In this document: positions 3,379-29,451 of the stretch, in pieces | Position numbering within the stretch: the first letter of the stretch is position 1 | Layout: the number at the start of each line of letters is the position of its first letter | Assembly: GCA_963817895.1 (NCBI GenBank) | Contig: CAWFQB010000002.1 | Span: 384,001 to 448,000, forward strand | Length of the DNA: 64,000 bases | From: an uncultured Chthonomonadaceae bacterium | GTDB taxonomy: Bacteria; Armatimonadota; Chthonomonadetes; Chthonomonadales; Chthonomonadaceae | Reading direction: 5' to 3' | Position numbers and translations under genes: made by a program | The notes under the pieces: model-generated | What the model saw: only the letters and a program-made list of their open reading frames with translations | Told to the model about the DNA's origin: nothing | Database searches by the model: none

Positions 3379-3407
3379 GCTTGCCTCCAAAGAAATGAAG
3401 TTAATAC

Positions 3408-3568
3408 TTTTCACCACCAAGACGCCAAGAACACCAAGAAATTCAGAAGAGAGTACAAGAATACTAAAAACCACGCATCTATTGATGTGAATGTCCCGAT
3501 CCCTCTTAAATCCGTTCTTTTATCTTCTCTTGTATTTCTTGGTGTTCTTGGCGTCTTGGTGGTGAAAA
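3408..3568. repeat. Inverted repeat element with perfect 35-bp arms (9-nt ACCAAGAAC-type units)
   Basis: TTTTCACCACCAAGACGCCAAGAACACCAAGAAAT (3408-3442) is the exact reverse complement of 3534-3568; AT-rich spacer. Confidence 0.95.
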
Positions 3569-3640
3569 CTTACGAAGTTTACTTGAATTGCGGTACTATT
3601 ACCACAACTTCGATTGAACTGGAAAGGCTTATCCAAAACT

Positions 3641-6091: not shown

Positions 6092-6260
6092 AGGAGAGCG
6101 ATTATTCCGTTAAGTTCGCCTGAAATTGCATCATTGAACAATATAGCAGGTAATATGTAGAAATTGAACGTAAACCTGCGCGTTGCGCAGAAAAAGCATA
6201 AGCATGATCTAACCGGAAGATTGTACGCGATACGGTCAGGATAGCAGGTTAGGACTTAAT

Positions 6261-9200
6261 CTGATAAGTCAGACGATTGCAGGCTATACCATTGTCGAGC
6301 GACCTTATCGCGGCAAAACGTCCCTGGTTTACCGGGCCATACACCCGACGGACGCGCGCCGCGTGGTCATTAAAACGTCGGCTACACCCATCCCGATGAG
6401 CAGGAACGGGAGCGCCTGCGCCGCGAATTTCGGCTGATGCGGCAGATAAGCGATCCGGGCGTGGCGCAGGCGTTTGCGCTCGAACCCTGCGGCGACAGCC
6501 TGGCCCTGATCATGGAACACGCGCCCGGACAAACGCTGCATGCCTACCTGAACGGCGTGGCCATGCCGGTATCGGAGTTTTTGCCGACCGCCATTGCCCT
6601 GTCCGACGCGCTGACAGCCGTTCACAAAGCGGGAATCGCGCATCGAGACGTGACGGCTTCCAACATCGTGCTGCACCCGACCAGCGGCAGCGTCAAATTG
6701 ATTGACTTCGACATCGCTTCCGCCCTGCCGCGCCTGGCCCCGTCCACCCGCAATCCTCATGCGCTGGAGGGAACGCTGGCCTATATCGCGCCCGAACAAA
6801 CGGGGCGCATCAACCGCTCCGTGGACAGCCGCGCCGATTTGTACTCGCTGGGCGTGGTGTTTTACCAGATGCTGACCGGCAGCCTGCCCTTTTCGTCCCG
6901 CGACCCGCTGGAACTGGTGCATTGCCACCTCGCGCAGACGCCGCCCGATCCCACAAGAGTAGAATCCTGCCGTTCCGCCCGTTCTGGCGCAAATCGCGCT
7001 GCGGTTGATGGCGAAAATGCCGGAAGACCGCTATCAGAGCGCGGCGGGCCTGAAAGCGGATTTGCAGAAATGTCTGAACGCAGAGCCGGGACAGCCGTTC
7101 CCCGACTTTGTGCTCGGCGAAAACGATGTTTCGCCCCGGTTCGCGCTGCCGGAAAAGCTGTACGGGCGCGAACAGGAAATTGCGCGACTACAGACCGCCT
7201 TCGCGCAAAACGATAATCAACCCCGGCTTGTGCTGATCCGGGGCTATTCCGGGGTCGGCAAATCCCGGCTGGTGGCGGAACTGCAGGGCGCGATTGCAGA
7301 CAGGCGCGGTTTTTTTCTCACGGGTAAATTCGATCAGATGAACCGCGATGCGCCGTTCCAAACACTGCGCAATTCATTTCGCGAGCTGATGCGGCAGATC
7401 ATGGCGGAAAGCGAGGAGGCCGTTGCCCAATGGCGCGAACGCCTGCGGGACGCCCTGGGAACAAACGGACAAATCGTTGCCGAAGCCCTGCCCGAACTCA
7501 CGCAAATTCTCGGCCCGCAGTTGCCCGTTCCCCTCTTACCCCCCGTTGAATCACAAAATCGCTTCGAGCGCGTGTTTCGAGCCTTCCTACAGGTATTTTG
7601 TCGTCCAGAACATCCTCTGTGCCTGTTTCTGGATGACCTGCAATGGATTGACGCGGCCACGCTGGCGTGGCTGGAAACCACCGTCGGGGATGTGGCATTG
7701 GGTTCGCTGCTGCTCATCGGCGCGTACCGGGAGAACGAGGTCAGCGCGTCCCATCTCCTGCAAATCGCGCTGGACCGCATCCGGGAGCGGAATCTGCCCC
7801 TCGAAACCCTCCTTTTGCAGCTACCCCCTTTTACCGCCGTGTCGCGCTTTGTGGCGGATGCCGTACATGTCGATGAGGCCGGCGCAAGGGAACTGGCGCA
7901 GGTTCTTTACGATAAAACGCAGGGCAATCCCTTCTTCCTCAACCAACTGCTGCTGTCGCTGCATGAAGAAGACTTGTTGCGCTTCGACTATGTTCATCTG
8001 CGGTGGACATGGGACATCGAGGCCATTGCCGCCCGCGAGGTCAGCGTCAATGTGGTCGAACTGCTTGTAGACCGCATGGCCCGCCTGAGCGCGGAGTGCC
8101 GGGAAATGCTGCCGCTTGCCGCCTGCATCGGCGCGGAGTTTACGCTCGGCCTGCTGCAAAGCGTGAGCGGATGGGAGGCGCAGGAACTGGAAACGCGCCT
8201 GTACGAAGCCGCCACTCTGGGCCTGATTGCGCCGACCAACTCCGAACGGGCGTTTCGCTTCCGGCACGACCGCGTACAGCAAAGCGCTCTCTTGCTGCTG
8301 TCGGAGGCGACAGCGGATCGCGTTCATCTGCTGATCGGGCGCAAGATGGTGGCGGAGGGCGCGGACGCGCCTGCCGATCCCCGCTTATTTGCCGCGCTCG
8401 GGCATTTACTGGCTGCTGAAGACCAAATTACCGACCATGCGGAGCGCGAACAAATCGCGCGTTTGAGCGTCACGGCGGCGGGGCGAGCGCGGCGGGCGAC
8501 GGCGTATGCGCGGGCGTTGGACTATTGCCGCGCCGGAATGCGTCTGATGGCCGGACTGGAAACCGCGCAATCGCCCCTGTGGCTCGAGTGCCTGCTGGAA
8601 AGCGCGCAGGCCGCGTATTTGAGTGGCGACGACGCGCAGGCGGAACAATTTTTCGCGCGCGCTCTGGAGGCCGGCACAGACGATTTCGACCGCGCCCGCG
8701 TGTACGAGCAGAAAACGCATTTTCTAACGCAGAAGGCGGATTTTCCCGGCGCGTATGCCTGCGGGCGCGAAGGCGCGGCGCTGTTCGGCGTGTGTCTGCC
8801 TGCCGGCTTCCATCCCGCGTATCTGGCGCGTCAACTCGCGCTTGTGAAAGCGGGAATGCGGGGGCGCAGTCCGCGCGAACTCGCCGGCCTCCCCGAAATG
8901 ACCGACCCGCGCCTGCGGATTGGAGCGCGGCTGGCAACCGCCGTTCTCAAAGCGGCGTACCAGATCAGGCCAGAATTGTGCGTGGCCGGCTCCGCCACTC
9001 TGGTCAATCTGTGTCTGCGGCGCGGCAACTTTCCCGAGTGTCCCGTCGCGTATTTGCCCCTGGGTCCTATTTTTCTGGGCGGCGTCCTGGGGCGGCATAA
9101 GGCCGGACACGAGTGGGGACAGCTTTGCCTTGCGTTGCTGGACAAATTCCATGTTACTCAGCAAACGGCAGAAGTAAATTTTGTATACGCCTACTTCGCG

Positions 9201-11771
9201 CATGCCTGGCTGCGTCCTTTAGAAACCACGGAAGCCTATTTTCGAGTCGCATACCAATCCGGCGCGCAGATGGGGGACTTTTTCCATGCGGGTTGCGGGT
9301 GCAGCGGATTGGCGCAACACGCGCTTATGCAGGGCGCAGACTTGAATTCCGTGTTGGCGGAGTGTGAGCGCGGCATGGACTTTTTGGAACGGGTTCAGAA
9401 TCGGGAAAACCTCGGCACGCTGCTGGCGGTTCGGCAGGCGGTACGGTGTCTGCGGGGGGAAACCCACGCTCCCGACTCGTTTGCCGATGCGACCTTCGAC
9501 GAAGCCGCCTATGTCGAAGAGCTGAAAGGGTACGGCTCACCACATTTCGCGCACTATTACCATGTCAACAAGCTGCAAACGCTCGTCTTGTGGCGCGAAC
9601 ATGACGCGGCGTTGAACGTGGCGCGGGCTTCGTCCGCCTATTTGAAATCGTCCATCGGGATGCAGCATGCTGTGGAACACCATTTTTACGCGGGACTGCT
9701 TTATGCGGAATTAATCGCTCTGCGCCGCCCCGGCCCGCGCCGTCGCTGGCTGCAGACTCTGCGCGCCACAATCCGGCGGTTCCGGCAGTGGGCGCGAAAC
9801 TGCCCCGAAAATTTTCTGCATCGCGCTCTGCTGCTGGAAGCGGAACTGGCGCAAGTCACGGGACAGGATACAATCGCCGGGACGCGCTACGACCAGGCGA
9901 TTGAAGCCGCCGCGCAGCGCGGGTTTGCCCACCACGAGGCGCTTGCCAACGCGCTGTGCGGGCGCTGGCATCGGGCGCGGGGACGGATGCGTAACGCGCG
10001 TTTTTACCTGCGCGAAGCGGCGTATGGCTACCGGCGCTGGGGCGCGACCGCGATTGCGGACGCGCTCATCGAGGAGATCGGCGAATGGGTGTCCCGGGAG
10101 CAGAGCAGCGCGGAGGCCGCCGAGTCCACCAGGGCGGCGAGTGGCTCGACGCGCCACGACGCGCTAAATCTGGACATGGATACAGTGGTGAAAGCGGCGC
10201 AGGCGATTGCCAGCGAAGTGAAATTGTCTGAACTGCTGGCGCGGCTGCTGCATCTGGTCATGGAAAACGCGGGGGCAACGCGCGGTATTTTGCTCCTCCC
10301 GCGCGGCGGAGATTATGTGGCGCAGGCCGAGGGGAACGGCGCGGACATTCAGGTTAAATCCGGCTTGCCGCTTGCCGAGCATCCCGCTCTGGCGCGGTCA
10401 GTCGTTAATTATGTCGCGCGTTCGCGTGAAACCACGATTGTCAATCGTATGGGGCAGGACGCCCGATTTGCCGCCGACGCGTATTTACAGGCTGCCAGAC
10501 CGCGTTCCGTGTTGTGCGCCCCGCTCCTCAATCGCGGCGTTTTAAGCGGCATCCTCTATCTGGAAAACGGGTTGATTGAAGACGCTTTTACCGCTTCGCG
10601 CATCCAACTGCTGCAACTGCTTTCCGCGCAATTCGCTATTTCCATCGAAAACGCGCTGGCGTATGAAGTGCTGGAACAAAAGGTACAGGAGCGCACAGCG
10701 CAACTGGAAGCCCGCAACGCCCTGATACAGCAGATTTTCGGACGCTACAACACGCCGGAAGTTGTGGAGCGACTGCTGGAAGACCCCGGGGGGCTGAAAA
10801 TGGGCGGCGAAAAGCGCGAAGTGACCGCGCTAATTGCCGACCTGCGTGGGTTTGCCGCCTGCGCGGAGAGTCTCGCGCCCGACCAGGTGGTAACGCTGAT
10901 TAACAATTTTCTGCGGGTAATGACCGAAATCATTATTGCGCGCGGGGGAACAGTCAACGGACTTACGGGCGACGGCATGCTGGTGATATTCGGCGCTCCC
11001 CTCTCCTGTCCCGACCATGCCAATCGCGCGGTCAGGTGCGGCCTGGCGATGCAGCTTGCTATGGCGCAGGTAAATGAGTTCAATGCCGCGAATGGCCTGT
11101 CCCAGGTGCAAATGGGCATCGGCATCAGCACGGGCGAAGTGGTTGCGGGCAATATCGGCTCCCTGCAGCGCGCGTCTTACACGGTCATGGGAACCGCCGT
11201 CAATCTGGCCTCGCGTATTGAATCCGTAACTACAGGCGGACAGATTTTTATTTCCGAAGCCACGCTGACGCAGGCAGGCCCGGATGTAGAGATCGGCGCG
11301 CGGCTGGAAATCGAGGCCAAAGGCTTCCGTGGCAAAATTGCCATCTACGATACGCGCGGGGTCGCGGGCAGGGACAGCCTGCGCTTACCCGAAGAGACAT
11401 CCGAACTTATTCAGTTACCACACCCCATTGCCATTCGCTATACGCCCCTCAAAGACAAAAGCATGAGCGGCGAATCACAGGCGGGACGTATTACCTGGCT
11501 GTCCGAAGTCGAAGCGCATATCAGCGCGCCCAATCCGCCCCCGCCACTGACCGATGTGGCCGTCCGGCTGGCGCGGGAGGATGGGAGCGCGATAGACGCC
11601 CTGGCGTATGCTAAAGTGACAGCCGACGCCGCGCGAGAGGGAGCCGATTTTGTGTGCCGGTTCACCTCCGTGGAAACGGAAGCGCGCGATTTTTTGAATC
11701 TTGCCGTCATGCCATGCGCCCTCGTGAAAAATATAGAGGTAATAAAGGAGGAATTGACAACACAAAAGTGA
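6261..11771 (+). CDS. Multidomain Ser/Thr kinase - AAA (P-loop) - helical repeat - GAF - class III adenylate/guanylate cyclase - PilZ-like C-terminus; frameshifts near 6390 and 6960-7000
   Basis: VYRA..VVIK, HRDVTASN, IDFDIAS, GTLAYIAPEQTGR; GYSGVGKS, FLDDLQWID, GNPFF; GAF (SVLCAPLL..GILYLEN); cyclase ADLRGF, GDG, GIGISTGEVVAGNIGS, VNLASRIES. Start (CTG 6261) uncertain. Confidence 0.85.
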
Positions 11772-11845
11772 ATAGAAGCATCGTAACTCATATCTTCAAA
11801 AACTACCCGCCGCAATACGCCGCGCTGTTCGCTGAAAGGGACTAC

Positions 11846-13696
11846 ATGAGCTATCTCGATGTACCGCGAATTCACATTGCGGGCCGGTTTTTTACCGACC
11901 CATCTTCCATTAACAATGACCCTGCCCATTATGACCCGAACTGCGAGCGCCCGTCACCCTGGCAAATGCCCAAAGGCAAGCACTACTTCAAACTCGTTGA
12001 CTGCGCTGTCCGCTCGGTACTGAACGATGTGGGCGCGTCTCCAACCGATGACCCGCTGATCGGAGCGCCGTTTCTAAGCACCGATTTGTTTGTTACGCCG
12101 CCCATGTTCCAGGAGAACGCGCCCTCTTCCGCAGCGAAAATGATTGATCTGGATGTGTACCAGCAGGGCGTATCCACGATTTACGGCCTACAGGTGCAGA
12201 TTGCTGTCAGCGAGACGGTTTCGCTCATCGGAAATGTACTGCCATCTCCGTCCCTGAACAGCTACACGTTCAGCCGCGTCCTGCCCACGCGCGGCTGGAA
12301 CGACGATTCGCAGCAGGCGAGCTACGGCAACGACATCAACGCCTGCGGCAATTTCCAAACTTGTATTCGCGTCCCCATTGCGAACTGGCCGGTAAATGCC
12401 TCGCCCGTCCTCGACCTTCTGCGCGCCAGAACCATTACCGAAAATGGCGACGTTCTGCTGGCCCTCAAATTTACCCTCGATGCTTTTAATAACGTGTATT
12501 TCGGCTGCCCTTCCGAAAATTGCTATCATGGCCGCTTGACGGGCTGTATCGGCCCGATGAAGGCCGGCGACCCGCTACAGGCTCCCGGCGCGCGCTGGCT
12601 GGCGGCCCGCGCGCTGCCTGCCAACGCGCCCTGGTTCGTGCCGACGTTCAATTCTGCGCCGTTTCAGGTGGACGCCACGCGCCGCAAACTGGTGGTGGAC
12701 CTTGCCAACAGCCTGTGCCTCGAAACCATCGGCGGCCCTCCGGTTGATCTGGGCGTGTTAAGCGCCGTGATGGGAGGGGAAGACGGACCGGTTACATTGG
12801 GCGCGCTGCAGTACGATCAATTCGGCTATGAAAATAATGCCGGAATCGCGGAACTGGATTTGACCGACGCGCAGGTACAGCAATTGGCGCATTCGCCGCT
12901 CGCTCTGGTCACCTCGCGGCAGGACATCGGCCCGCAGGCCGTGCTGTCGGAAGACCCTTCCGGGCTGTGGTGGGCGGTGGATACCCGTATTCTGCGCATG
13001 AGCAGCGAAGCGAACAGCGCAGCCAGTGTCGCGACGATTCGGGTGCATGCCACGCAATGGGGCTTGCCCGCTCCCCATGTCGCGCTGCAGGCGCAGGTGG
13101 TTCCCGTTCAGGGCACTACCCCGGGCGCGACCGTGCCGCCCACCTATGCGGGGGATACCTTCAATGCTGAGGGCGCGTTGACGGCCTCCATCACGCCGAC
13201 GGATTATGATGGTTACGCGCAATTGACCCTCAATGTCATCAAAGACCCTGGCTCCCGTACTCCCTGGCTGGACAGCCAACTCTACTTCGTCAATATTTAC
13301 AGGGACGCCCCGCAGCAGGGACAGGTTCAGGAACAGCAATTGTCGTGCCAGGTATGGGCGCGATACCCGGTCAATCCCAATCCGACCTGGGATGTGATTG
13401 CCGCCATGATGGCTGCGTATAACCGGTTATACCCGGCCATGAGGGAGATGATTGATCTGACGGATGAACACTCGTTCCGCGTATTCGCCTTCAATCCGCC
13501 CTGGTCTGTGCCGGACGGCATCACCTTCAACGTGCCAGCCGACTATAGCGTGGATGGTATCAACAGCGGCGCAATCCCGTTTTTCCTGACCCGCGATGGG
13601 GATGACCCGCGCTTTATGCCGCCCACTCGCGACCTGTCGCCCAATAAAATTCAGACCATTCTCAACTACATCAAGAACAATCCGCCGCAGTCGTAA
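11846..13696 (+). CDS. VioB/RebD/StaD N-terminal-region-like protein without a C-terminal ferritin-like domain
   Basis: MSYLDVPRIHIAGRFFTDPSSINND and C-terminal YNRLYPAM...RFMPPTRDLSPNK resemble motifs recalled for VioB-like proteins. Confidence 0.6.
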   Translation: MSYLDVPRIHIAGRFFTDPSSINNDPAHYDPNCERPSPWQMPKGKHYFKLVDCAVRSVLNDVGASPTDDPLIGAPFLSTDLFVTPPMFQENAPSSAAKMIDLDVYQQGVSTIYGLQVQIAVSETVSLIGNVLPSPSLNSYTFSRVLPTRGWNDDSQQASYGNDINACGNFQTCIRVPIANWPVNASPVLDLLRARTITENGDVLLALKFTLDAFNNVYFGCPSENCYHGRLTGCIGPMKAGDPLQAPGARWLAARALPANAPWFVPTFNSAPFQVDATRRKLVVDLANSLCLETIGGPPVDLGVLSAVMGGEDGPVTLGALQYDQFGYENNAGIAELDLTDAQVQQLAHSPLALVTSRQDIGPQAVLSEDPSGLWWAVDTRILRMSSEANSAASVATIRVHATQWGLPAPHVALQAQVVPVQGTTPGATVPPTYAGDTFNAEGALTASITPTDYDGYAQLTLNVIKDPGSRTPWLDSQLYFVNIYRDAPQQGQVQEQQLSCQVWARYPVNPNPTWDVIAAMMAAYNRLYPAMREMIDLTDEHSFRVFAFNPPWSVPDGITFNVPADYSVDGINSGAIPFFLTRDGDDPRFMPPTRDLSPNKIQTILNYIKNNPPQS

Positions 13697-13734
13697 GAGG
13701 GCTGTCGGCTCGAATTTTTACGAGGATACATACT

Positions 13735-15285
13735 ATGCGCGGTTTCAAAACCTCTGTTGCCCTTGCTCTGCTGATTGTGTGTCTGTCAGGAATAGCGGCG
13801 CGTGGCCGGGCGCAAAACGATCCCAATAGCGACCCCAACATCGTTCCCAATGCGCTGCCGTATACGCTGACGTTTACTCCGATGACGTATGCGCCGAGTA
13901 CGCGGTATGCGGCTCTGCCCGCGCTGCACTCTTATCGCTCGGTTGTCACAAAAGACGGGAAGTGGCTGGTTCTGGGCGGACGCTACAATGCCGGTCTGCA
14001 CACGTTCAAAACGCCGGTGGCGGGCGTGAACAACTTTTCCAGCCCCAATAAATGGCTGTGGGTGATTGACCCGGAAAAGGGCGTGTTGGGCAAGTTCGAC
14101 GTGACGACCCTGCCGCCCGGCATGGCGCCGCTGTTTCAGGCGACCAATCAGGAGTCCTACTACGACCGCGCTAACGACCGGTTGTACGTGGTGGGCGGCT
14201 ACGGTCTGAATGGACAGGGCAGCTACGTCACGTTTAGCGCCATGATGCGCTTTTCGCCGACACTGGTGATTCAGGAGATACTCAGCGCGGACAGCAATGC
14301 CGTGAAGTCGCAGAAAATTCAGGGGATGGTGCAGCAGTTGCAGGACGACAATCTTGCGGTTACAGGCGGCGAGATGTTTCGGCTGAACGGCGTGTTTTAC
14401 CTCACATTCGGGCAAAAAGCGTCAGGCAAATATGATGCGTTCGGTGGTTCGCTCAACCAACAATACACCCAACAGGTGCGCTACTTCACCCTCAACCCCA
14501 ACGCGCCCGGCCTGTCCTTTTTGACGTTGCCGGTGGGAACGGCGCAAAAGCCCGAGTATCATCGGCGCGATGGCAACATCATGTCCACCATTGACCCGCA
14601 AACCGGAAACCAGCAGATCGGCGTGTTTGGCGGCGTATTTCCCGATGGCGTTATCGGAGCGTTCCCCAATCCCATCTACATTTCGCAGGATCGCTCCATC
14701 GTCATAGACACGGCGAACCAGTATTTCAGCGCGTATAACTGCCCCGTGATCGTGGCCTATGACCCGACAGGCAAGCGGACGTACCATACGTTCTTCGGCG
14801 GTATCAGCCACTACTTCTACAGCGAAACCGCCGCGCAGCAGGTGGTCTACAAGCTGGCGACGGGACAGGGGCGCAACGATGGCCTGCCGTTTATTCGCGA
14901 CATCAGCACGTTTATCCGTAAGGGCGACGGCACATGCGAAGAGTGGATTCTGCCGTCTCCTGTTCCCGGCAGCCTGATGCAGGGAACCGGCGCGGCGTTC
15001 ATGCCGGTCGCCTCGCTGATTGGCGGCGCGCTGGATGAGGAGGGCATTGTGTGGCTGAACAAACTAGCGCCGGAAAGCAGCCAGACTATCGGCTATATCT
15101 ACGGCGGCATCACCGCCCTCAACCCGTTCCCGACGATTCCCAACACGGGTACATCGGGAAGCAATACGGTCTACAAAGTGACGCTGAACATGTCGCCTTC
15201 CGGCGCGATTCCGGTGTCCAAAGCGACAGCGGCAGTGTCTAACGGCACGCCGCCTTTTACCCCGCCCGCTGCGGCGAACCGGTAA
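13735..15285 (+). CDS. Secreted protein, probable Kelch-like beta-propeller
   Basis: Signal peptide (ALALLIVCLSGIAARGRA); repeated hydrophobic-GG motifs (WLVLGGR, LYVVGGY, LAVTGGE, IGVFGG, TFFGG, YIYGG). Confidence 0.6.
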   Translation: MRGFKTSVALALLIVCLSGIAARGRAQNDPNSDPNIVPNALPYTLTFTPMTYAPSTRYAALPALHSYRSVVTKDGKWLVLGGRYNAGLHTFKTPVAGVNNFSSPNKWLWVIDPEKGVLGKFDVTTLPPGMAPLFQATNQESYYDRANDRLYVVGGYGLNGQGSYVTFSAMMRFSPTLVIQEILSADSNAVKSQKIQGMVQQLQDDNLAVTGGEMFRLNGVFYLTFGQKASGKYDAFGGSLNQQYTQQVRYFTLNPNAPGLSFLTLPVGTAQKPEYHRRDGNIMSTIDPQTGNQQIGVFGGVFPDGVIGAFPNPIYISQDRSIVIDTANQYFSAYNCPVIVAYDPTGKRTYHTFFGGISHYFYSETAAQQVVYKLATGQGRNDGLPFIRDISTFIRKGDGTCEEWILPSPVPGSLMQGTGAAFMPVASLIGGALDEEGIVWLNKLAPESSQTIGYIYGGITALNPFPTIPNTGTSGSNTVYKVTLNMSPSGAIPVSKATAAVSNGTPPFTPPAAANR

Positions 15286-15297
15286 TGAATCCAACCG

Positions 15298-15537
15298 CTA
15301 TTCGTCTTCCGGCGCAATGTCCTCATCACCGCCGCCGAGCAGACTGCGGGCCTGCTGCAAGCGTTGAGAAGCCGCGTCGCCGCCCGCTTTGAGTTTCTCA
15401 ATATCGGTCAGCGACAGGTACACTTTCGCCGCGCCCTCCAGATCGGCGCCCTTCAAATCCAGCACGATCCACCCGTCCGGGTCGGTCTTGCCTTTGAATG
15501 TGCCGGTGAACTTGATACGGTTTTTGGGGAAAAGCAA
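15298..15537 (-). CDS. Small hypothetical protein
   Basis: 79-aa ORF with host-like codon usage. Confidence 0.5.
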   Translation of the reverse strand: MLFPKNRIKFTGTFKGKTDPDGWIVLDLKGADLEGAAKVYLSLTDIEKLKAGGDAASQRLQQARSLLGGGDEDIAPEDE

Positions 15538-15822
15538 CGGAGTTCCTCTGCGTGGCTAAAATAAGGGAGTCACATCTGCTACGAAAGTCTTTTGGTGGTT
15601 TCTTTGTACGCAGAAATAGTCGTCATCTTGTGAAGCGAGGTTTCATAAACGCCATACTGATGTAGTAACCCAAGTTGCTACCTTAAACCGTGTTTGAGAT
15701 AGCAACGTACCAAAAGTAGCAATATTCGCCAGAATCTTCCAGATGAGAATTAAGGTAGCAAATTGAATTAGTAGAATATATTAAAAACTATAACTTAGTT
15801 CTTGTTGTTGACGATGAATCTA

Positions 15823-17625
15823 CTAAAAACTGGTCGCATCAAATCGGCGTGAAGTCGTTTTTAGAAGCAAGGTGACAACTATATAGAGTGTCACGGCGAT
15901 TACAACAGTTATCCCACCAATTGCATAGATGCCTGGATTAAATCCTGACTTCATCTTGCCATTGATATACAAGCTTAACATTTGATTTGAACCGCTTAAG
16001 AATGATGACCTTACATAGTCATTAACCGAAAGCAAAATACCGATAATAAATGCACTGACGATGCCAGGCCATGTCAAACTAAAGAGAACTCGACGGCAGA
16101 TAAAGACTCGTGAGGCTCCCATTTCTCGTGCAACTGCAAACAATGTAGGATTCACACTACTATTCACAGCAAAAATAACTGCAACGCAAAAAGGTAACGC
16201 CCAAGCTATATGTGATGCAGCCACAAGTATAAGTGAGGCACCTTTCATGCCGCAGGATTTGTAAATCTTTTGTATTGCTTGAACGTAAGAATTTGCTGGC
16301 AGGAGAACTAATATACTTAGTCCACAAATTACAACAAAGCGCCACAACTGGTGCCACCATACCAATCCAATAATAAATGCCAAGGTTGCACAGAGAAACC
16401 CGACCGGCAACGCTATTTCAAGTGAGTTAATCCATGCTTGTCTTAACGTATCTCCTTCAAATACCTTCCAATACCAATGTAAACTCAACTCAAACTTTGA
16501 ACTGTTAATTACTCTATATGGCGCAATTGAAAGTATTAAGATCGAGCATACCGGTGAGAGTAGGAATAGCATGATTGCCGCCACTATTCCCCCTTCTAGG
16601 AGCGAAGAGGTAACTTGCCTGTAGTGTTGATGCACTGCCCTTATGGAAGGAATAAAAGTCTCAACATCATTCATTTTTCCAAGTTCGTTAGGTTGGTGTT
16701 CTGAAAGGGTGTTGCTGTCTGGGATAGACCTGCCTACATGGCGGAATAATAAACATCCCAACGCACCGCTGACCAGAAAACAAGCTATAAGTAACGAACT
16801 GAGAGCATGTACCGCAGCAAATTTGTTAGCGCTTTGCAGACCATTAATGAAAGCACTCAGACTTCTGTCTTGCTTTTCAAGTAGGGAAGGCTCCACAGAG
16901 TTTCCGAAAGCTAACCAGAAGGCGCAGAACCATCCAAAAAGAATACCGGGTGCAGCTACAGGTAGAACAATGCGGACGAGTCTCGTACCAGTATTGGCAC
17001 CTATTTCATCGCAGGCTATCCAAAAGCTGTTGCGGCTACTGGGTAAAGCAAGAACCACAGGAAAAACAACGAACGGCAGGGTGGCTGCTATTAAAGTGAT
17101 TACAATAGAAGTCCGAGTGTAAATCAGCCATCGAAGTGGGGTAGCATGTGGGATGGTTGAAGTCAAGAATGAGTTTACAAATCCATTAAGATTGAGAAGA
17201 TGCAACCATCCATATGAACGTGATGTGGCATTTACCAGAAATGGAACATTGAGTGTCATTAACAATGTCCACCGCCAGATTGCTGATTTGCGACGAACAA
17301 TAAAATCTGCAAGTGCTATGCCAATTATAATATCAATTGTGGCTACAATTACGCCCCGAAACACGAGTTCTGATAAAGCTGTGACATACTGCGGTTGAAG
17401 AATTTCCTTATACCCTTGCGTCGAACCCCATCCTACCTGCCGCAACCCATCCCAAGTTACCAAACTCTCGTGAAGGACTACAAACATGGGTATCAGACAC
17501 AAAAATAGAAGGCAGAGGCATGGAATAATAGCCATCGCACTATGCCAAAAGTTTCGGTAGCTATCTTTCATCTCACTCCTCAGAATAAACTCATGTGCCT
17601 GATCTACTATATGCAGATCAGGCAC
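15823..17625 (-). CDS. Fused double ABC permease (PotB+PotC-like)
   Basis: Two TM modules, each with a degenerate EAA loop (IACDEIGAN..RIVLP; AVAREMGAS..RVLFSLTWPG); ~600 aa. Confidence 0.8.
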   Translation of the reverse strand: MPDLHIVDQAHEFILRSEMKDSYRNFWHSAMAIIPCLCLLFLCLIPMFVVLHESLVTWDGLRQVGWGSTQGYKEILQPQYVTALSELVFRGVIVATIDIIIGIALADFIVRRKSAIWRWTLLMTLNVPFLVNATSRSYGWLHLLNLNGFVNSFLTSTIPHATPLRWLIYTRTSIVITLIAATLPFVVFPVVLALPSSRNSFWIACDEIGANTGTRLVRIVLPVAAPGILFGWFCAFWLAFGNSVEPSLLEKQDRSLSAFINGLQSANKFAAVHALSSLLIACFLVSGALGCLLFRHVGRSIPDSNTLSEHQPNELGKMNDVETFIPSIRAVHQHYRQVTSSLLEGGIVAAIMLFLLSPVCSILILSIAPYRVINSSKFELSLHWYWKVFEGDTLRQAWINSLEIALPVGFLCATLAFIIGLVWWHQLWRFVVICGLSILVLLPANSYVQAIQKIYKSCGMKGASLILVAASHIAWALPFCVAVIFAVNSSVNPTLFAVAREMGASRVFICRRVLFSLTWPGIVSAFIIGILLSVNDYVRSSFLSGSNQMLSLYINGKMKSGFNPGIYAIGGITVVIAVTLYIVVTLLLKTTSRRFDATSF

Positions 17626-17637
17626 ACACTTGTGACG

Positions 17638-18849
17638 TCAAGCACTACGTAGCTTGCTCCACCACTCCTCATACAACTTATACTCCTTCGGCCGAGAGTT
17701 CTGCCAAAATGCCTGTCCACCTTGCTTCAGGAACTTGTCATGAACATGCTGTGCAGTCGCAGCTATGACTTTCGAGTCGAATTCTGATGGATTCTTGCCG
17801 GCGTAATCCACAGCCTTGTCCGTTGGGACAACATAGCCCCTGAGTTTAGACAATGCACACCCATAATACCCCCCCAACTCCCAGTTGGCAAACTGGTGCG
17901 CCAAATCTATTAGGTCACGAGACTTTGCGCCCGTGTGCAAAATCAGATCGTTGGACCAGCCCTCATACCCTTCTTTGGGTACAGCATACTGAGCATTCAC
18001 TCCGGCTTTCTGAGCAGCAAGAACAATAGGCTCCCACCCGGTCATTACCCACACCTCTTGGCTCTTTATGAGCTGTAGGCCGTCTTCCCATCCGTTCCAA
18101 AGACGGCGAAATTGACCGTCCTTTTTTTTCTTGATTAGAAACTCCATAACCACTCCGAGTTCATCGGGAGTAAGGTTACCAGGATCTTGAATTTTCGAGA
18201 TGGCGTTTTGTTTGAGATAGATCGCCGTGAAAATAGCACTGTTGATCCAAGCATCCTCCATTGAGGTCTTGCCCTTTAGTTTAGGATCAAATACAGCGGC
18301 ATAACTGTCAATTTTACCTACCTTATCGGGAAGGTAAATCATGGAGTCGGCATTGATAACGATTGGTAAACCGTATTGTTTTCCGTCGTATTTGGCATGG
18401 CGAATGTCTTGAGCCCAAGGCCAGACCGCCTGCCAGTTGGGAATTTTAGTTAAATCCCATGGAAGAATTTTGCCTGCTTGTGCCAGTTCTGCTTCAGCCC
18501 CACCTTGTAGACCGCCCAAGTCAAAGTCGTCAGCTACTGTGCCTGAGACCATCTGAGTAACAACTGGTCCTGCATCGTTGTTGTTGTCCTTGAACGTTAG
18601 TTTAACGTGCAAGTCCTGTTGTGCTTGTGCCCACGACTCAAGGTTGAGGGTGCCAGTACCGTACAACTTGAGTTCACGGATGCTGGTTACAAGCTTATCA
18701 GATGTAGCCGTACCAGAGTGGTTGTCGCCTCCACGACAACCACTCATTACTGCTGCAAGGCCGATGCCTGAATAGCCGAGTCGGCGAAGTAGGTCACGTC
18801 TTGATATATTGGAGTCGTAACCATGGTGCTGATCTTTGGGTAAGGTCAT
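17638..18849 (-). CDS. ABC substrate-binding lipoprotein, PotD/PotF-like, Tat-exported
   Basis: Twin-Arg SRRDLL plus lipobox MSGC; DLTKIPNW, DGKQYGLP, FDPKLKGK, YAVPKEG. Confidence 0.8.
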   Translation of the reverse strand: MTLPKDQHHGYDSNISRRDLLRRLGYSGIGLAAVMSGCRGGDNHSGTATSDKLVTSIRELKLYGTGTLNLESWAQAQQDLHVKLTFKDNNNDAGPVVTQMVSGTVADDFDLGGLQGGAEAELAQAGKILPWDLTKIPNWQAVWPWAQDIRHAKYDGKQYGLPIVINADSMIYLPDKVGKIDSYAAVFDPKLKGKTSMEDAWINSAIFTAIYLKQNAISKIQDPGNLTPDELGVVMEFLIKKKKDGQFRRLWNGWEDGLQLIKSQEVWVMTGWEPIVLAAQKAGVNAQYAVPKEGYEGWSNDLILHTGAKSRDLIDLAHQFANWELGGYYGCALSKLRGYVVPTDKAVDYAGKNPSEFDSKVIAATAQHVHDKFLKQGGQAFWQNSRPKEYKLYEEWWSKLRSA

Positions 18850-18883
18850 CTTAATCCTCCTAAAAACTTTCTAAGTAGACCGA

Positions 18884-18932
18884 GGGCTAAAGTTCGTAGA
18901 TTTTACATCTCGAAAAACTACGAACTTAGTCC
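18884..18932. other. Intergenic stem-loop between the ATPase and SBP genes
   Basis: AAGTTCGTAG (18890-18899) pairs with CTACGAACTT (18918-18927). Confidence 0.5.
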
Positions 18933-18982
18933 AATGCCCGCCTTAGTTCAACTCAATCCTTGTTCAATCCCTACATTGTTTA

Positions 18983-20131
18983 TCATGTCTGTAGTGGTAC
19001 CGCATAAGCATCAGACAAAGAGAATGAGAATGATATGGGGTCGCCGGGATTGTACTCTACTTCCATCACACGTCGCGGCACATCACAAATGACTAAGTGC
19101 TTATCAATTTGTCCAAGCATGGTAATGTGGATGCGCTTATAAAATCCGCGGAACTGCACAGTACGCACAATTCCACTAAGGTTGATGTAATTATTATTGT
19201 TATTACGTAAACAAATATCCTCTGCCCTAACTAAAATGGCACATTGTTTGTCATATATATGGTTATATTCTTGAGGCAGATGCAACACAACGTTTAAATG
19301 GGCAGATGTGAATTTGCCACTAAGGTCGCATTCACCCTCCAATATAGTATGACCGTCCAAAATTCTTGCGGCTTCCACACATGGCGGGCGTAATACTATA
19401 TCCTCTGTGTTGCCGTAAGCAATTAATTTTCCATGATTTATTATTGCTAAATGACTACATAGCGACATAGCGAAGTCATGATCATGTGTAACGGTAAGAA
19501 TTGTGGGACGGTTATTCCCATTGGAAACTTCTGTTAGCAACAGAGCCAAGTTGCTTTTCTGCTCTGCATCTAGTGACGCTGTTGGCTCATCCAAAAGTAG
19601 AATGGATGGTTGCATAATAAATGCTCTAGCTAAAGCAGTACGTTGTTTCTCTCCTCCACTAATACTAACTGGTTTATGAAATCTTTGATCCCATATACCG
19701 AAACGCTTCAAGTATTCATTCACGCGGGCTTCAGGAGTTGCTTTTATTTCAGTTGGAATGGCATTTTGACGTTTTAATATTTTGAAAAGTTTCAAGAACA
19801 CATCTCTGATGCTCTTCCTGGAAACAGTCAACGGGAACTCTACATTTTTAAAAACAGTGAGATTGGGAAACAGAGCGTGATCCTGAAATACAGTTATGAC
19901 GCTACGTTCGCCAGGTACATGCTGAGTTATATCACAACTGTCAAGTAAAATATTACCATTAGATACTGGAAGGTGTCCTGCTACAATACTCAGCAGTGAG
20001 GTTTTACCTGCACCACTAGGCCCTATAATGCCAACATGTGCACCTTTTTCAACTTTCAAATTTATATCGTCAAGCTGAAATTTATTGTAACCATAGCTAT
20101 AAGACACCTTCCTAATTTCAAGGTAAGCCAC
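18983..20131 (-). CDS. ABC ATPase, PotA-like, with C-terminal TOBE region
   Basis: Walker A GPSGAGKT, VFQDHALFPNLTV, signature ISGGEKQRTALARA, LLLDEP, VTHD. Confidence 0.9.
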   Translation of the reverse strand: MAYLEIRKVSYSYGYNKFQLDDINLKVEKGAHVGIIGPSGAGKTSLLSIVAGHLPVSNGNILLDSCDITQHVPGERSVITVFQDHALFPNLTVFKNVEFPLTVSRKSIRDVFLKLFKILKRQNAIPTEIKATPEARVNEYLKRFGIWDQRFHKPVSISGGEKQRTALARAFIMQPSILLLDEPTASLDAEQKSNLALLLTEVSNGNNRPTILTVTHDHDFAMSLCSHLAIINHGKLIAYGNTEDIVLRPPCVEAARILDGHTILEGECDLSGKFTSAHLNVVLHLPQEYNHIYDKQCAILVRAEDICLRNNNNNYINLSGIVRTVQFRGFYKRIHITMLGQIDKHLVICDVPRRVMEVEYNPGDPISFSFSLSDAYAVPLQT

Positions 20132-20768
20132 TAGTATTCTCCATTTTTGGATCTACAATGATGTATGGTAATCGTTGCTTCGCTACAGGTAGCAGTTCAA
20201 GGTACTTTCCTTCATAGATTGCAACAATTATATCCATCTCTGCGGCAGGCCCAAATTCTAAATCAACTATGTTCTGGTCTGCAATAAAGAGCTTCATTGC
20301 AATTTCTTCAATGATGTAAGGTGCAAGACGTACCATCATGGGATGTCGTTTGCTCGAAATTCCATGCTGGCGTAGTAAGGGCTGGAGATTCCGAAATATC
20401 TGGTTGTGACAATGACTCGCGAACTCTCGCGAATGTGTATACACATTATTTACTGTCTCCAGATAATATATGAAGTTAGGTAAATTTGCATAATTAGTCC
20501 ACGAATTTATTTTTATATTGGGAAGATTTGAAGCCATCAATGCTGAACTTAAATCTTTGCAACGCTTCTGAACGTGCGCTTCAGCAGAAGCGATTGAAAG
20601 GTGGCAAAGATGTGACTGATTGGTTATTTCTGGTTTGTCAAGAAGACAAATAATTAGCTCATCGCACATACTCTGTGTATGCCGTGCAACATAACTCAAA
20701 TAATGTGGTGTCATGACGTACGCGCCTAGACTAACTAAGATTATACCTTCTTTTTTATTATTTATCAT
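20118..20768 (-). CDS. Divergent tRNA-dependent cyclodipeptide synthase (CDPS)-fold protein
   Basis: 216 aa. LVS13LG (catalytic Ser position), LLD44, SIASAEAHVQKRCKDL, INSW, EFASHC, Y151IIEE155 (YxxxE) and PYIIVDP are colinear with AlbC motifs as recalled. Confidence 0.7.
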   Translation of the reverse strand: MINNKKEGIILVSLGAYVMTPHYLSYVARHTQSMCDELIICLLDKPEITNQSHLCHLSIASAEAHVQKRCKDLSSALMASNLPNIKINSWTNYANLPNFIYYLETVNNVYTHSREFASHCHNQIFRNLQPLLRQHGISSKRHPMMVRLAPYIIEEIAMKLFIADQNIVDLEFGPAAEMDIIVAIYEGKYLELLPVAKQRLPYIIVDPKMENTSGLP

Positions 20769-22587
20769 CGATATGCCTCGAGTAGAATGTGTTTATTGTT
20801 GCGTACTTTTGCCAGAATCTGTGTGGACGTCCGTCATTTTTATAGTTTTTCCATTGTTGTGGATCCGATATGCTGACCGCGCCTTTATCGAACAAATTCC
20901 TTTTAGCAATTTGGCTGAGACCAGCCGCATTTGCTATATTTGCATCAAAGCAGGATTGAATCTTATCCAAGCTCCTTACATTGTGGAAGTTGGCCCCACT
21001 TAAGTCTGCAAACTCAAAATTTGCGCCTCGTAATGATGTAAAACTGAAGTTAACATAACGCGCTGATATAAAACTGAGGTTCGCGTCATCAAGAAGGGCA
21101 TTTTGAAAGTTCGCACCATCAAGATTGGCTCCCTTAAAATCAGAAAACTGTAGATGGGCCATCTGAAGGAAAGCATTCTGAAAAGAGGCATTAAGAAAGA
21201 AAGCTCCAACACCAAGTGGATGTTCATCACTGTCCGCATGAACATTACTCAAATCGGCATCATCAAAGCAGGCGTTAAAGAACTTAGCCCCGTCGATGCG
21301 TGAGCCACGTAATCTTGTCATGCGTAAGTCACAGTTACGAAAATCCGCGTTTGTGAGAATAGTATCAACTAAATAAGCTTCGACAAGAGAAGAGTGTTCA
21401 AAGATAGCATTTGTTAAGCGTGCGTTGGAGAAATCAGCATCATCCAGAATAGACAACGCAAATGTTGAATTTTGAAGATTTGCTCCCTTAAATAATCCTC
21501 CCTCAACATAGCTTCGTTGAAAACTGGCACCAACTAAATTGTAGTATTCAAGATTTAGTTTTGCGAAGCGCGTCCTTTCAAACAATTGTGCAGGATTATC
21601 ATACTTATTGCGCACAGATTGTAATGGCTTTGACCACACCCAAGCCAAGCCATTTCGAGACGTTTCACTACGTTTAGGTTGACCTACTCCATACCAACTT
21701 TCGGGACGTATGGTAGTTAGCATGTCTACAACCGCCTCGGACTTATCAGGTGATAGCATCGATGCTACATTTTCAGTACGGTTCTTTTTTTCATGTAATG
21801 GGCGCATACTCCTAGCTTGTAGTTCTTCAAGAGTAACAGGAACTCCACGCTTCATAAACGTTTGTACGAGATGTTTAACTTCATCTGCGTAAAGGGCATG
21901 AGTGTGCATACGTCCGCTCAATACTTCACGAACTCCATCTACTACATTGATGCGAACGGAGTCAGGTACTTGACGTGTCATCATAACTGGAACGCGACTA
22001 AGAGAAGCGATGCGTCGTTGCTCGGTTGTACTTCCAATGTCATCTGCCAGACGGGTAAAAGAGCGTTCAGCATTATCTATCATTGAAATACGATTTTGGA
22101 ATTGGTAAGTTAAAATAGCAACCAATATGCCGAAGGCACTGCCAACTGTGAGTAGTGCCTTGCCGAGCATTTGATAACCCTCCGGGCTACTAAAGCTCTT
22201 CCAAAAGTGTTGCCACCAACCTGCAAGCATACTTTTCTTCATGCGACACCACATACTGCGAAGAAGCACTGGTACATTGCTCTTTATTGAAACCCACACA
22301 TCTCCCATCTTCTTTCTACACTTTGCAAGTCCCTTTATGTGTGTAGATTTAAGCCGTATGATACTTGGCATAACTATTTTATTCATCTTGTTTTGATGAG
22401 GAGTTTGAGCAATTCTCTCATCTTGTATGTTCTGAGTTGCAGGTAGTTCAACCCGAATTACATTATTCGACGTTGTTTCAGGAATGACTACTTGAGATGA
22501 GACATGAACAGTATGAGTGTTGTTAGAGTTCCCATGTACCTCATCTCTATGTTGTGCTTCTACAGTATTTTTTTGTGAGTTTTCCAT
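20758..22587 (-). CDS. Membrane-anchored pentapeptide-repeat protein
   Basis: Low-complexity N-terminus, TM helix (ALLTVGSAFGILVAILTY), helical FTRLADDIGS..RRIASL segment, long A-[DN]-[LF]-x-x repeat tract; GGGGAG SD before ATG 22587. Confidence 0.85.
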   Translation of the reverse strand: MENSQKNTVEAQHRDEVHGNSNNTHTVHVSSQVVIPETTSNNVIRVELPATQNIQDERIAQTPHQNKMNKIVMPSIIRLKSTHIKGLAKCRKKMGDVWVSIKSNVPVLLRSMWCRMKKSMLAGWWQHFWKSFSSPEGYQMLGKALLTVGSAFGILVAILTYQFQNRISMIDNAERSFTRLADDIGSTTEQRRIASLSRVPVMMTRQVPDSVRINVVDGVREVLSGRMHTHALYADEVKHLVQTFMKRGVPVTLEELQARSMRPLHEKKNRTENVASMLSPDKSEAVVDMLTTIRPESWYGVGQPKRSETSRNGLAWVWSKPLQSVRNKYDNPAQLFERTRFAKLNLEYYNLVGASFQRSYVEGGLFKGANLQNSTFALSILDDADFSNARLTNAIFEHSSLVEAYLVDTILTNADFRNCDLRMTRLRGSRIDGAKFFNACFDDADLSNVHADSDEHPLGVGAFFLNASFQNAFLQMAHLQFSDFKGANLDGANFQNALLDDANLSFISARYVNFSFTSLRGANFEFADLSGANFHNVRSLDKIQSCFDANIANAAGLSQIAKRNLFDKGAVSISDPQQWKNYKNDGRPHRFWQKYATINTFYSRHIDDK

Positions 22588-22753
22588 TCTAAACTCCCCA
22601 ATATTTAATCGCACTACAAACTCGAATGTTGTGACCTGCCTTCTATTGCTTCTACGCTCATAAAGTCCTAAGTAATTTTAACATGATATTCCTTAAAAAT
22701 CAATAGGTTTCCAATTTTTTTATCCGGTGGTGTATTTTGATCAACGTTAAACA

Positions 22754-23338
22754 CTAAAATATGCCATCACCAACCACTGTAATTATCCTCGCCAGCGACA
22801 TGACCGTGCCAAGACACCAGCGAACCGCGTCTATCAGGCGATGCCGCGTGATGTTCTTTTGTTCGATGAAATCGCCGTAGAATTGGTTCTGGTCAACGTA
22901 ACTGCCGAACTCGATCAGGGCGTCGGCAAACACAGGCGGGACGCCCACGCCGAGCGCGGTTAAAATGCGCGCGAACAGGTCGAGCGTGTTGGCGATGATT
23001 TTGCGCTCGTCGGCGGACTGCGATTGCAGCAGAAACAGTGTTTGCGAGATGTCAATCAGATAGACATTGCGCAGCGAGAGTTCCTTAAATTCCGCCTGAA
23101 TGTTCGCCAGTTTCAGAGCCGTTTGCGCAAGGCTGATGTCCGCGAAGAGAACAACCTGTCCATCAGCGATCAGCGGCTGCATTTGCCCGTCCTGCTCAAT
23201 GAGAAAGGTGAAAAAGTCGGGCCGGTCGCGCCTGCCGTCCAGCCGCAGGCCGGTCAAAAAGAAGGTTGCGGTGGACTCAGAATTGGCTTCGTTACCAGCT
23301 TCAAAGGGTAATGGGGTTGTATTTTCATCGGACTGCAT
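22754..23338 (-). CDS. Hypothetical protein
   Basis: ~194-aa ORF from ATG 23338 with host-like codon usage. Confidence 0.6.
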   Translation of the reverse strand: MQSDENTTPLPFEAGNEANSESTATFFLTGLRLDGRRDRPDFFTFLIEQDGQMQPLIADGQVVLFADISLAQTALKLANIQAEFKELSLRNVYLIDISQTLFLLQSQSADERKIIANTLDLFARILTALGVGVPPVFADALIEFGSYVDQNQFYGDFIEQKNITRHRLIDAVRWCLGTVMSLARIITVVGDGIF

Positions 23339-27285: not shown

Positions 27286-29451
27286 TTGAAGACGAGAGCA
27301 GAACACGCAAAGCCCGGTTCTTTCGATCAGGCTGTGACCACCCAACCTAAAAACCACGCGATGGTTACTTCTTCCCCTTCCGAAGTCTCCTCCCGGCCCC
27401 GGACACTCTCCTCAGTTTCCGGCAATGTGGCTGTCTCCCATGCTCTGACGACGGAAACCGTCTCGCTGGAAGCCGTTCGCCACGCCATTACGGGCGCGCA
27501 GCACTATCTGCTGGATCGGCAGGAGCCGGAGGGCTACTGGGTCGCCGAACTGGAAGGCGATACCATCCTCGAAAGCGAGTATATTCTGCTCCTGCAGTTT
27601 CTGGATCGCCGCGATCCGGAGAAATTTCGCAAACTCGCCAAATACATTCGCAGCAAGCAGCATCCGGAAGGCTACTGGTCTATCTATCCCGGCGGCCCGC
27701 CGGATGTCAGCGCGTCCGTGAAAGCCTATTTCGCCTGCAAACTGGCCGGGCATAAGGAGAACGAGCCGTTTATGCGCCGCGCCCGCAACGCCATTCTCGA
27801 AGAGGGCGGCGTGACGCAGTGCAATACCTTCACCAAACTCTACCTCTCCATGTTCGGGCAGTACGACTGGCGCGGCGTTCCGACCATTCCGCCGGAAGCC
27901 GTGCTGATGCCCAAGTGGTTCTACTTCAATATCTACAACATGTCCTCGTGGTCGCGGGCGATTCTGGTTCCGCTTGCCGTGATGAACGCCACGCGCCCGC
28001 AGCGTCCCATTCCCGATAACGCGGGCATACCGGAACTGTTCGTGGGCGGGCGCGACCGCAAGCGGATGCGTGCTGTCGTGGGACCGCAAGCCGCTCACCT
28101 GGCGCAACGTGTTCCTGGTCATGGACAAAATCCTCAAGCTCTACGATGCCAGCCCCGTCAAGCCGTTCCGCAAACTGGCGCTGAAGCGGTCACTGGAATG
28201 GCTGCTGGAGCGCGAAGAGAACAGCGGCGGACTGGGCGCGATTTTCCCCGCCATGACGCACGCGATCATGGCCTACAAGTGCATGGGCTATGCCGGACAA
28301 CCATTGGGCGATCTGCAAAGAACTGGCGGAACTGGCCGCGTTCGAGATCGAAGAAGACGACACGATCCGCCTGCAGCCCTGCGTGTCGCCGATCTGGGAT
28401 ACGGCCATCGTCATCAATTCGCTGGTCGACAGCGGCTATGCCGCCGACAGCGAAGCGGTGCAGCAGGCGGCGGAATGGCTGCTGTCCAAGCAGACCACGC
28501 GCAAGGGCGACTGGGCGGTGAAAGTGCCCAATGTCGAGCCGGGCGGCTGGTACTTCGAGATGGAAAACGAGTACTATCCGGATGTGGACGACACCATCAT
28601 GGTGCTGATGGGCCTGTACAAGGCCTACTGTCCGAATGGCGAGCACTGGACGGAAGCGCCCGCCGCATGTCCGCGAAGTCGATGCGCAAGGGGCTGGACT
28701 GGGTCTTCGCCATGCAGAACAGGGATGGCGGCTGGGGCAGTTTCGACAAAGACAACAACAAGACGCTGTTCCAGTACGTGCCCTATGCCGACCACAACGC
28801 GATGCTCGATCCCTCCTCCGCCGACATCACCGCCCGCACGCTGGAAATGTGTCCTACTTCAGCATCGGAAACGCATCCGAATGGGGCCGCGATGTGCAAC
28901 GCGCCCTGGACTATCTCTACCGCGAGCAGGAAGCGGACGGCTCCTGGTTCGGCCGCTGGGGCGTGAACTATCTGTACGGGACGTGGCAGGTGCTGCGCGG
29001 GCTGGCGCGGTATCGGCGAGGATATGCAGTCCGAGCGGATTCAGCGCGCCGTGCGCTGGCTGCACTCCGTGCAGAACGAGGATGGCGGCTGGGGCGAAAC
29101 CTGCCAGTCCTACGATCCCGAACATCCGAAAGCCAACGGGCCAAGCACGCCGTCGCAAACCGCCTGGGCGCTGATGGGCCTGTTCAATGCGGGCGATCTG
29201 GACAGCCGCGTTCGTGCAGCGCGGGCTGGACTACCTGCTGAACAATCAGGACGAGCGACGGAACCTGGGAAGAGGAGTGGTTCACGGGAACCGGCTTTCC
29301 CCGCGTGTTCTACCTGCGCTACCACTACTACCGGCACTATTTCCCGCTCTGGGCGCTGGCGCAGTACCATACGTTTGTTACCGGCGAACCCTGCGACGGC
29401 CCCGCCAACAGCAAAGCGCATGGGGGCAGGTTCGCCAATTTGGAAGTGTAG
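27286..29451 (+). CDS. shc: Squalene-hopene cyclase; multiple frameshifts
   Basis: QEPEGYWVAELEGD, QPCVSPIWDT, YYPDVDDT (DXDD), QW motifs QNRDGGW and QEADGSWFGRWGVNY, TGTGFPRVFYLRYH; ends TAG 29449-29451. Confidence 0.92.

Follow-up and report, generated by a model that had tools for sequence, protein, structure and literature searches.

The AT-rich cassette and its insertion site

The stretch analyzed here (the window) comprises 64,000 nt from an uncultured Chthonomonadaceae bacterium (GenBank assembly GCA_963817895.1, contig CAWFQB010000002.1, positions 384,001 to 448,000) and carries at 15823-22587 a cassette of five intact open reading frames (ORFs), in which a protein with the fold of cyclodipeptide synthases (CDPSs) is joined to the parts of an ATP-binding cassette (ABC) importer. 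All five lie on the minus strand and are free of frameshifts, as an earlier, sequence-only reading of this DNA had claimed and the ORF list bears out. In the direction of transcription, they encode a membrane-anchored pentapeptide-repeat protein (PRP) of 609 aa (20758..22587; Pfam PF00805, E 5e-28, and hydropathy), the CDPS-fold protein of 216 aa (20118..20768; predicted model, structure matches and alignments), a PotA-like ABC ATPase with TOBE domain of 382 aa (18983..20131; family profile matches, motifs intact), a substrate-binding protein (SBP) of 403 aa (17638..18849; PF13416 and alignment of the family) and a fused PotB- plus PotC-like permease with about 11 transmembrane (TM) segments (15823..17625, likely start 17571; PotB and PotC models, hydropathy and a check of ribosome-binding sites). 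The overlaps of 11 bp between the PRP and CDPS-like genes and of 14 bp between the CDPS-like and ATPase genes had been given correctly, whereas the reported 12-bp gap between SBP and permease holds only when counted from the first GTG (17625), which lacks a ribosome-binding site. As the ATG at 17571 is preceded by GAGGAG 6 nt upstream and hence is the likely permease start, this gap likely amounts to 66 bp, thereby enclosing a strong RNA hairpin (17592..17628, minus strand; z -4.9, 0/200 shuffles as stable) which possibly tunes the SBP/permease ratio. The gap between the ATPase and SBP genes measures 133 bp and contains an inverted repeat (18890-18927; 15-bp arms, 8-nt spacer), judged from its sequence a possible operator or RNA stem; the entire gap folds no better than shuffled sequence. 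Promoter-like sites occur near chance level (22 versus 16 +/- 4).

The GC content of positions 15531-22760 is 0.42, while the genome averages 0.568 (sd 0.019); 0/7387 7-kb windows reach so low a value, the cassette itself being the lowest-GC 7-kb window of the genome. In the congener G002 the site is empty: the sequences corresponding to the window flanks 15299-15536 and 22778-23269 are only 69 bp apart there, from which, along with a step in GC content, an insertion of about 7.2 kb at about 15537-22777 (ends approximate) is derived. The cassette is missing from the same site in two congeners, G002 and G001, the latter possessing a C5 DNA methyltransferase gene and an ORF of no known family instead. 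The earlier description of the locus as a compositionally foreign island was thus substantiated, and its statement that tailoring enzymes and exporters are absent agrees with ORF list and profile scans, which revealed none within the insertion. Neither terminal repeats nor an integrase mark the insertion in the ORF list and repeat search. The cassette is rare and horizontally acquired.

The CDPS-fold enzyme and its coupling to the importer

The predicted model of the 216-aa enzyme (predicted local distance difference test score, pLDDT, 96.5) was used for a structure search whose hit list is headed by ten structures of CDPSs (Z 13.9-21.1), the best match being the putative CDPS 9gun (Z 21.1, root-mean-square deviation 2.5, 196 residues aligned), and a profile built from 58 homologues matches 9gun at E 2.5e-22. 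The curated CDPS family TIGR04539 scores the window enzyme at 21.3 bits, below its cut-off of 45, and no Pfam match was obtained at E 0.1. A cluster-representative search yielded 111 homologues; residue counts refer to sequence alignments with 110 rows (the homologues minus the outgroup-like P0111 and P0112, plus the window protein) and take in only rows with a residue at the given column. Ser13, the equivalent of the acyl-accepting S37 of AlbC, is kept in 93/94 members and Glu155 (AlbC E182) in 108/108, while Tyr151 (AlbC Y178) is Tyr in 91/108 and Phe in 17/108; basic residues are common at positions 117-141. The column of the cyclizing tyrosine (AlbC Y202) contains Tyr in 0/107 members, with Gly173 in the window protein, whose E-F-G-P aligns by sequence with E-I-Y-P of 9gun; in the preceding column Tyr occurs in 24/107 and the window protein has Phe. 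The signature Tyr of NYH or XYP CDPSs is therefore absent. Active CDPSs strictly conserve S37 and Y202 according to the accessible text of PMC5935735, and the same residue set is given in the portions of PMC11580168 and PMC7613923 available. Since Ser13 and Glu155 are kept, the enzyme can probably still be acylated on Ser, as judged from the alignments, and since the conserved cyclizing Tyr is missing, it is not a standard CDPS. Of the earlier assignment as a CDPS-like enzyme the fold hence stands, whereas the catalytic residue set and the TIGR04539 score fall short of it.

When compared to the XYP CDPSs 9gun, 5ocd (Fdum-CDPS) and 9j61 (BcmA), the window enzyme shares the fold (Z 18-21, TM-score 0.72-0.76), the Ser, Tyr and Glu corresponding to S37, Y178 and E182 of AlbC and usually Pro at 203, but it lacks Tyr202, shows 10-19% identity, is linked to an importer ATPase by gene order or, in relatives, by fusion, and is accompanied by neither tailoring enzymes nor an exporter. 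Going by the sequences, it apparently belongs to an undescribed Tyr-less CDPS-fold family. The literature search retrieved no description of such a family or operon, with subscription papers and supplements, which possibly hold member lists, outside its coverage. A brief remark on fusions of NYH CDPSs to ABC-transporter domains appears in the accessible text of Gondry 2018 (PMC5816076), which gives no family, operon or function there; these fusions have the C-terminal ABC-transporter domain in common with the present family and are set apart by their description as NYH only. For comparison, stand-alone CDPSs with tailoring genes are reported in the seen part of Aravind 2010 (PMC2922099), and one siderophore-like CDPS cluster with import and export pumps in that of Skinnider 2018 (PMC5767969).

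The proposal of a synthase coupled to an importer gained more support from the homologues than had been claimed. As many as 41/111 enzyme homologues are fused to a PotA-like ABC ATPase as C-terminal domain, the Walker A/B, signature and H-loop motifs being intact in most of them, and at least 13 changes between fused and split states, a number which fragments may inflate, were counted on a FastTree tree of the enzyme. A metagenome scan by the enzyme alone identified 11 loci representing 9 distinct cassettes, and among those with enough sequence the ATPase directly follows the enzyme in 8/8 and the window's SBP family is present in 7/7. In a genome scan by the SBP, of which the best 80 of 122 loci were considered, 9 loci contain the enzyme, a canonical CDPS occurs in 1 and hydantoinase/oxoprolinase genes in 64, the other 6 being of different kinds, and none has both the enzyme and hydantoinase/oxoprolinase genes. 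Enzyme cassettes were identified in five phyla or classes (Bacteroidota, Desulfobacterota, Alphaproteobacteria, Verrucomicrobiota and Acidobacteriota), including the cultured type strain Novosphingobium lentum NBRC 107847 (L035), and 13/15 cassettes have a GC content below that of their own flanks. The outcome named beforehand as refuting the idea, namely that homologues never co-occur with the ABC set, is thus at odds with these loci.

The locus scans by the enzyme used the narrower alignment A3, A1 and A2 being too divergent for this purpose; its pattern favors one branch and would miss a 26-member subgroup which is free of ATPase fusions. As the contexts of this subgroup are not covered by A3, the link between enzyme and importer is not established for the whole family. 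To the subgroup belong P0116, where the CDPS-like domain follows a Ser/Thr protein kinase, and P0110, where it precedes DUF1232. A prediction of the enzyme-ATPase complex scored 0.00 and counts neither way. Locus L015 (8276-12989) displays an importer cassette in which the 5' part of the ATPase gene and the genes upstream are replaced by an integrase gene, and no match to the enzyme was found in its genome.

Relatives of the enzyme were found neither in viral contigs nor in plasmids, and 400 further genomes from the host's phylum gave no match to the enzyme. Phylum samples of about 1900 genomes contained no family member beyond the known loci and only the more distant CDPSs of L100, L102 and L106; ABC genes are absent from the 3-kb loci around these distant CDPSs and from the 12 kb listed for L104. 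In L102 (1480-3629), where Tyr is missing as well, and L100 (2-2145), which also carries a PhyH dioxygenase, the CDPS lies beside a multi-pass membrane gene; the two membrane genes are alike (E 1e-12), resemble solute symporters on inspection by eye and have no Pfam or NCBIfam family match, and the pair possibly represents a second CDPS-plus-uptake theme. In L106 (764-2130) an XRE-type helix-turn-helix gene is directly followed by an XYP CDPS.

Upstream partner, importer and likely cargo

Among 18 distinct enzyme cassettes, the window included, there are 11 in which the gene before the enzyme encodes a protein of 460-515 aa with no evident signal peptide and 3 (window, L068 and L011) in which it encodes a PRP; L082 is ambiguous, L092 apparently has no gene in this position, and in 2 cassettes the position is off the contig. 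Ten of the 11 proteins, L086 not being among them, built a profile, and the partner possesses a PBP2 fold of the TauA/SsuA/NrtA type (Z ~21), the regulatory domain of CmpC being among its matches (Z 20.7). Judged by sequence and fold, a putative cytoplasmic ligand-binding protein is the usual occupant of the slot. A ribbon-helix-helix (RHH) N-terminus was identified above cut-off in L081 and weakly in L035, with no assignment in seven Bacteroidota-type N-termini.

The window PRP contains one TM segment at 141-159 and repeats at about 336-546 (hydropathy, PF00805), and a search with its non-repeat region matched only the PRP itself. Pentapeptide repeats are shared with Qnr, MfpA, McbG and AlbG, but the PRP, having 609 aa and a TM anchor, is unlike the small, soluble all-repeat proteins of the Qnr/MfpA type, and it reaches 41 bits with the Qnr model (cut-off 240) and 39 bits with that of MfpA (cut-off 360). 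Consequently, gyrase protection and the suggested self-protection of the Qnr/McbG/AlbG type are unsupported. As to its being part of the system, a membrane PRP indeed resides next to the enzyme, but it is not a core component given 3 cassettes as compared to 11 with the PBP2 protein. By analogy with the other occupants of the slot, the PRP is probably a receptor or scaffold, this being the weakest step of the interpretation.

SBP, permease and motif-intact ATPase reside in one operon, as expected for a type I SBP-dependent ABC importer; the SBP bears a twin-arginine/Cys signal, as read from its sequence, and the permease is covered by the PotB model at 28-240 and by the PotC model at 341-591. 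All curated scores are far under cut-off (PotF 17/636, YdcS 51/725, PotA 165/482, PotB 102/348), and only weak Protein Data Bank (PDB) matches to PotF were obtained for the SBP. With PotABCD, PotFGHI and YdcSTUV the importer thus shares the ATPase with TOBE domain, the two permease halves and the cluster of polyamine-type SBPs, and differs in its low scores, its own SBP family, its fused permease halves and the enzyme attached to the ATPase. At least 120 SBP relatives exist at 53-77% identity, which makes the SBP much more conserved than the enzyme (23-54%); automatic annotation names them spermidine/putrescine binders. The second outcome anticipated as refuting, a plain putrescine binder, appears not to apply, as the SBP forms a family of its own at a great distance from PotF. 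A search of 60 relatives gave no match to the SBP, and viral contigs contain no SBP relatives, while SBP relatives of less than 60% identity occur in 21 plasmid records, 19 of which come from Rhizobium, Aminobacter, Pararhizobium or Microvirga.

A sister SBP clade (support 0.999), outside of which the window SBP falls, accompanies caprolactamase-like hydantoinase/oxoprolinase pairs in the 64 loci mentioned (from the best 80 of 122), the pairs scoring below the caprolactamase family cut-off. These loci (within L003-L080, Rhizobiales and others) represent a widespread operon, often located behind a MalT-like regulator, in which hydantoinase/oxoprolinase B and A are followed by an ABC importer. 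Their SBP belongs to the same family (51-62% identity) and they share the order enzyme-ATPase-SBP-permeases with the cassette, but carry lactamase-like catabolic genes in place of the CDPS-like gene. Hydantoinase/oxoprolinase-type enzymes are related to ATP-dependent lactam hydrolases in the accessible text of PMC8453981, and diketopiperazine degradation is treated at the whole-strain level in that of PMC3852281. Locus L067 combines the PBP2 gene and importer of the cassettes with a canonical NYH-type CDPS (128 bits, TIGR04539 cut-off 45), in which Tyr-His is kept and Cys replaces Ser; among SBP-bearing loci its ATPase and permease are closest to those of the window. The lactamase-like operons of the sister clade and the canonical CDPS of L067 together suggest that a cyclic amide or dipeptide rather than putrescine is the cargo.

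A proposed make-import-sense module and its rivals

Based on these data, the cassette is tentatively read, with slightly less than even confidence, as a mobile make-import-sense module for a peptide signal, built from the CDPS-fold enzyme, a dedicated ABC importer and an upstream reader; a make-and-sense module had already been suggested in the earlier reading. By prediction, the enzyme would use aminoacyl-tRNAs to make a small molecule of dipeptide type, whereby Ser13 would be acylated from aminoacyl-tRNA and the dipeptidyl ester would be released without Tyr by spontaneous ring closure or hydrolysis. The product would then exit by diffusion or via a host exporter, be captured by the SBP and be returned by the importer, to be bound by the PBP2 protein, which, in some loci with its RHH domain, may control transcription; in the window genome the membrane PRP would take the slot of this protein as reader. 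Several points weigh against this reading. The cyclizing Tyr is missing throughout the family, and the Y202F exchange accumulates the dipeptidyl-enzyme according to the available text of PMC5935735. The cassette has neither an exporter nor an output gene, and attaching a synthase to the ATPase of an importer makes more sense for handling cargo that comes in than for a signal that is sent out. A DNA-binding domain was identified in only 1 (weakly 2) of 9 PBP2-partner N-termini tested, and the window genome (81% complete) has no match to the PBP2 partner. The swap for a canonical CDPS concerns the single locus L067, no paper linking the hydrolase family to diketopiperazines was found in the literature search, and the enzyme, with 0/400 phylum genomes, is too rare to be the main nutrient source for the common catabolic operons.

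The absence of Tyr, exporter and output gene and the fusion to the importer fit the main alternative, which we consider rather unlikely, namely that the ATPase-tethered enzyme moves an amino acid from aminoacyl-tRNA via Ser13 onto an imported amine or cyclic amide, the PBP2 protein then sensing substrate or product; import of the acceptor substrate had been named as an alternative in the earlier reading, too. Loss of the cyclizing Tyr alone, with Ser and Glu being kept, is what such a transferase would show; the ATPase fusion is frequent and scattered over the tree, the enzyme sits directly before the ATPase in the same slot as the hydrolase genes of the catabolic operons, an exporter would be unnecessary, and the more distant Tyr-less CDPS of L102 also abuts a multi-pass membrane gene. 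However, L067 joins the same importer to a CDPS keeping Tyr-His, and neither a downstream enzyme for the modified product nor an acceptor was identified. A non-catalytic role, in which the CDPS-fold domain, through binding aminoacyl-tRNA or being acylated by it, makes the transporter respond to amino-acid status in the manner of the regulatory domains attached to NrtC and CmpC, would agree with the fusion to a motif-intact ATPase, the erosion of both active-site tyrosines (Tyr151 being Phe in 17/108) and the match of the PBP2 partner to the CmpC regulatory domain. It appears improbable, since a Ser and a Glu that hardly vary among sequences of 25-48% identity speak for chemistry, the Y167F variant of ParcuCDPS appears to retain activity as given in the available part of PMC7613923, and a canonical CDPS takes the enzyme's place in L067.

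It is distinctly improbable, too, that the cassette serves anti-phage defense or conflict, with the small molecule warning neighbors or the membrane PRP acting as effector. Its sporadic and mostly low-GC occurrence, the methyltransferase and the ORF of no known family at the same site in G001, the fusion of one homologue to a protein kinase and the presence of Pycsar, pAgo/AbiE, methyltransferases or SoFic near 4/9 long loci would suit defense, but defense-like neighbors also occur in 2/9 control catabolic loci under a stricter E cut-off, so that an enrichment is not established, and the PADLOC 2023 models, which are silent on undescribed systems, match 0/5 cassette proteins (enzyme, PRP, SBP and two PBP2 partners). 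An ordinary polyamine importer with unrelated passengers, to which the automatic names of the SBP relatives and the Pot-like permease and ATPase point, is very unlikely indeed, being largely refuted by the fusions and the conserved synteny, next to the low PotF score and the weak PDB matches.

In its logic of placing a signal maker, an importer and a cytoplasmic ligand-binding regulator on a mobile element, the make-import-sense module can be likened to circuits with re-import and an intracellular receptor, such as Rap-Phr/Opp, arbitrium and AI-2 Lsr; they have no homologous parts, and the maker of the cassette would be tRNA-dependent and non-ribosomal and its receptor of PBP2 fold. Whether for acylating cargo or for making a non-cyclic signal, a Tyr-less tRNA-dependent branch that has abandoned cyclization and acts at the cytoplasmic face of an importer, with its own PBP2 or pentapeptide receptor, would form a transporter-tethered signaling or group-transfer system without described precedent, a possibility to which we assign less belief than disbelief. 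Most cyclodipeptides have no established biological role, and a dedicated receptor or uptake system is known for few of them; in the cassette, one operon supplies candidates for the maker, the importer and the receptor. Owing to its presence in the cultured N. lentum strain, the signal hypothesis is directly testable. A natural Tyr-less family moreover probes the accepted CDPS mechanism and may yield an aminoacyl-tRNA-dependent transferase, while the SBP ligand, once found, would assign a substrate to the common lactamase-like rhizobial operon.

Several minor features were observed around the locus and its relatives. A 79-aa ORF with TTG start (15298-15537, minus strand), unannotated, without Pfam match and conserved in G002, borders the left end of the insertion. 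A second insertion (3391-15298), likewise absent from G002, includes genes for a protein of 1588 aa with AAA_16, GAF and adenylate cyclase assignments (7005-11771) and for two proteins of no clear family (11654-13696 and 13735-15285), the latter of which was not found in 5 relatives. At the cassette's site in G001 (L097, 10876-12885) the C5 methyltransferase gene faces the ORF without family match, a 280-aa protein which is possibly a novel restriction nuclease. In N. lentum the gene of an AlaX-like tRNA editing protein (L035, 4328-5074; PF01411, PF07973) lies about 1.7 kb upstream, on the strand opposite to that of the cassette. Finally, a squalene-hopene-cyclase-like gene, recognized by eye at 27286-29241 of the window, appears to be split over several frames, perhaps by assembly errors.

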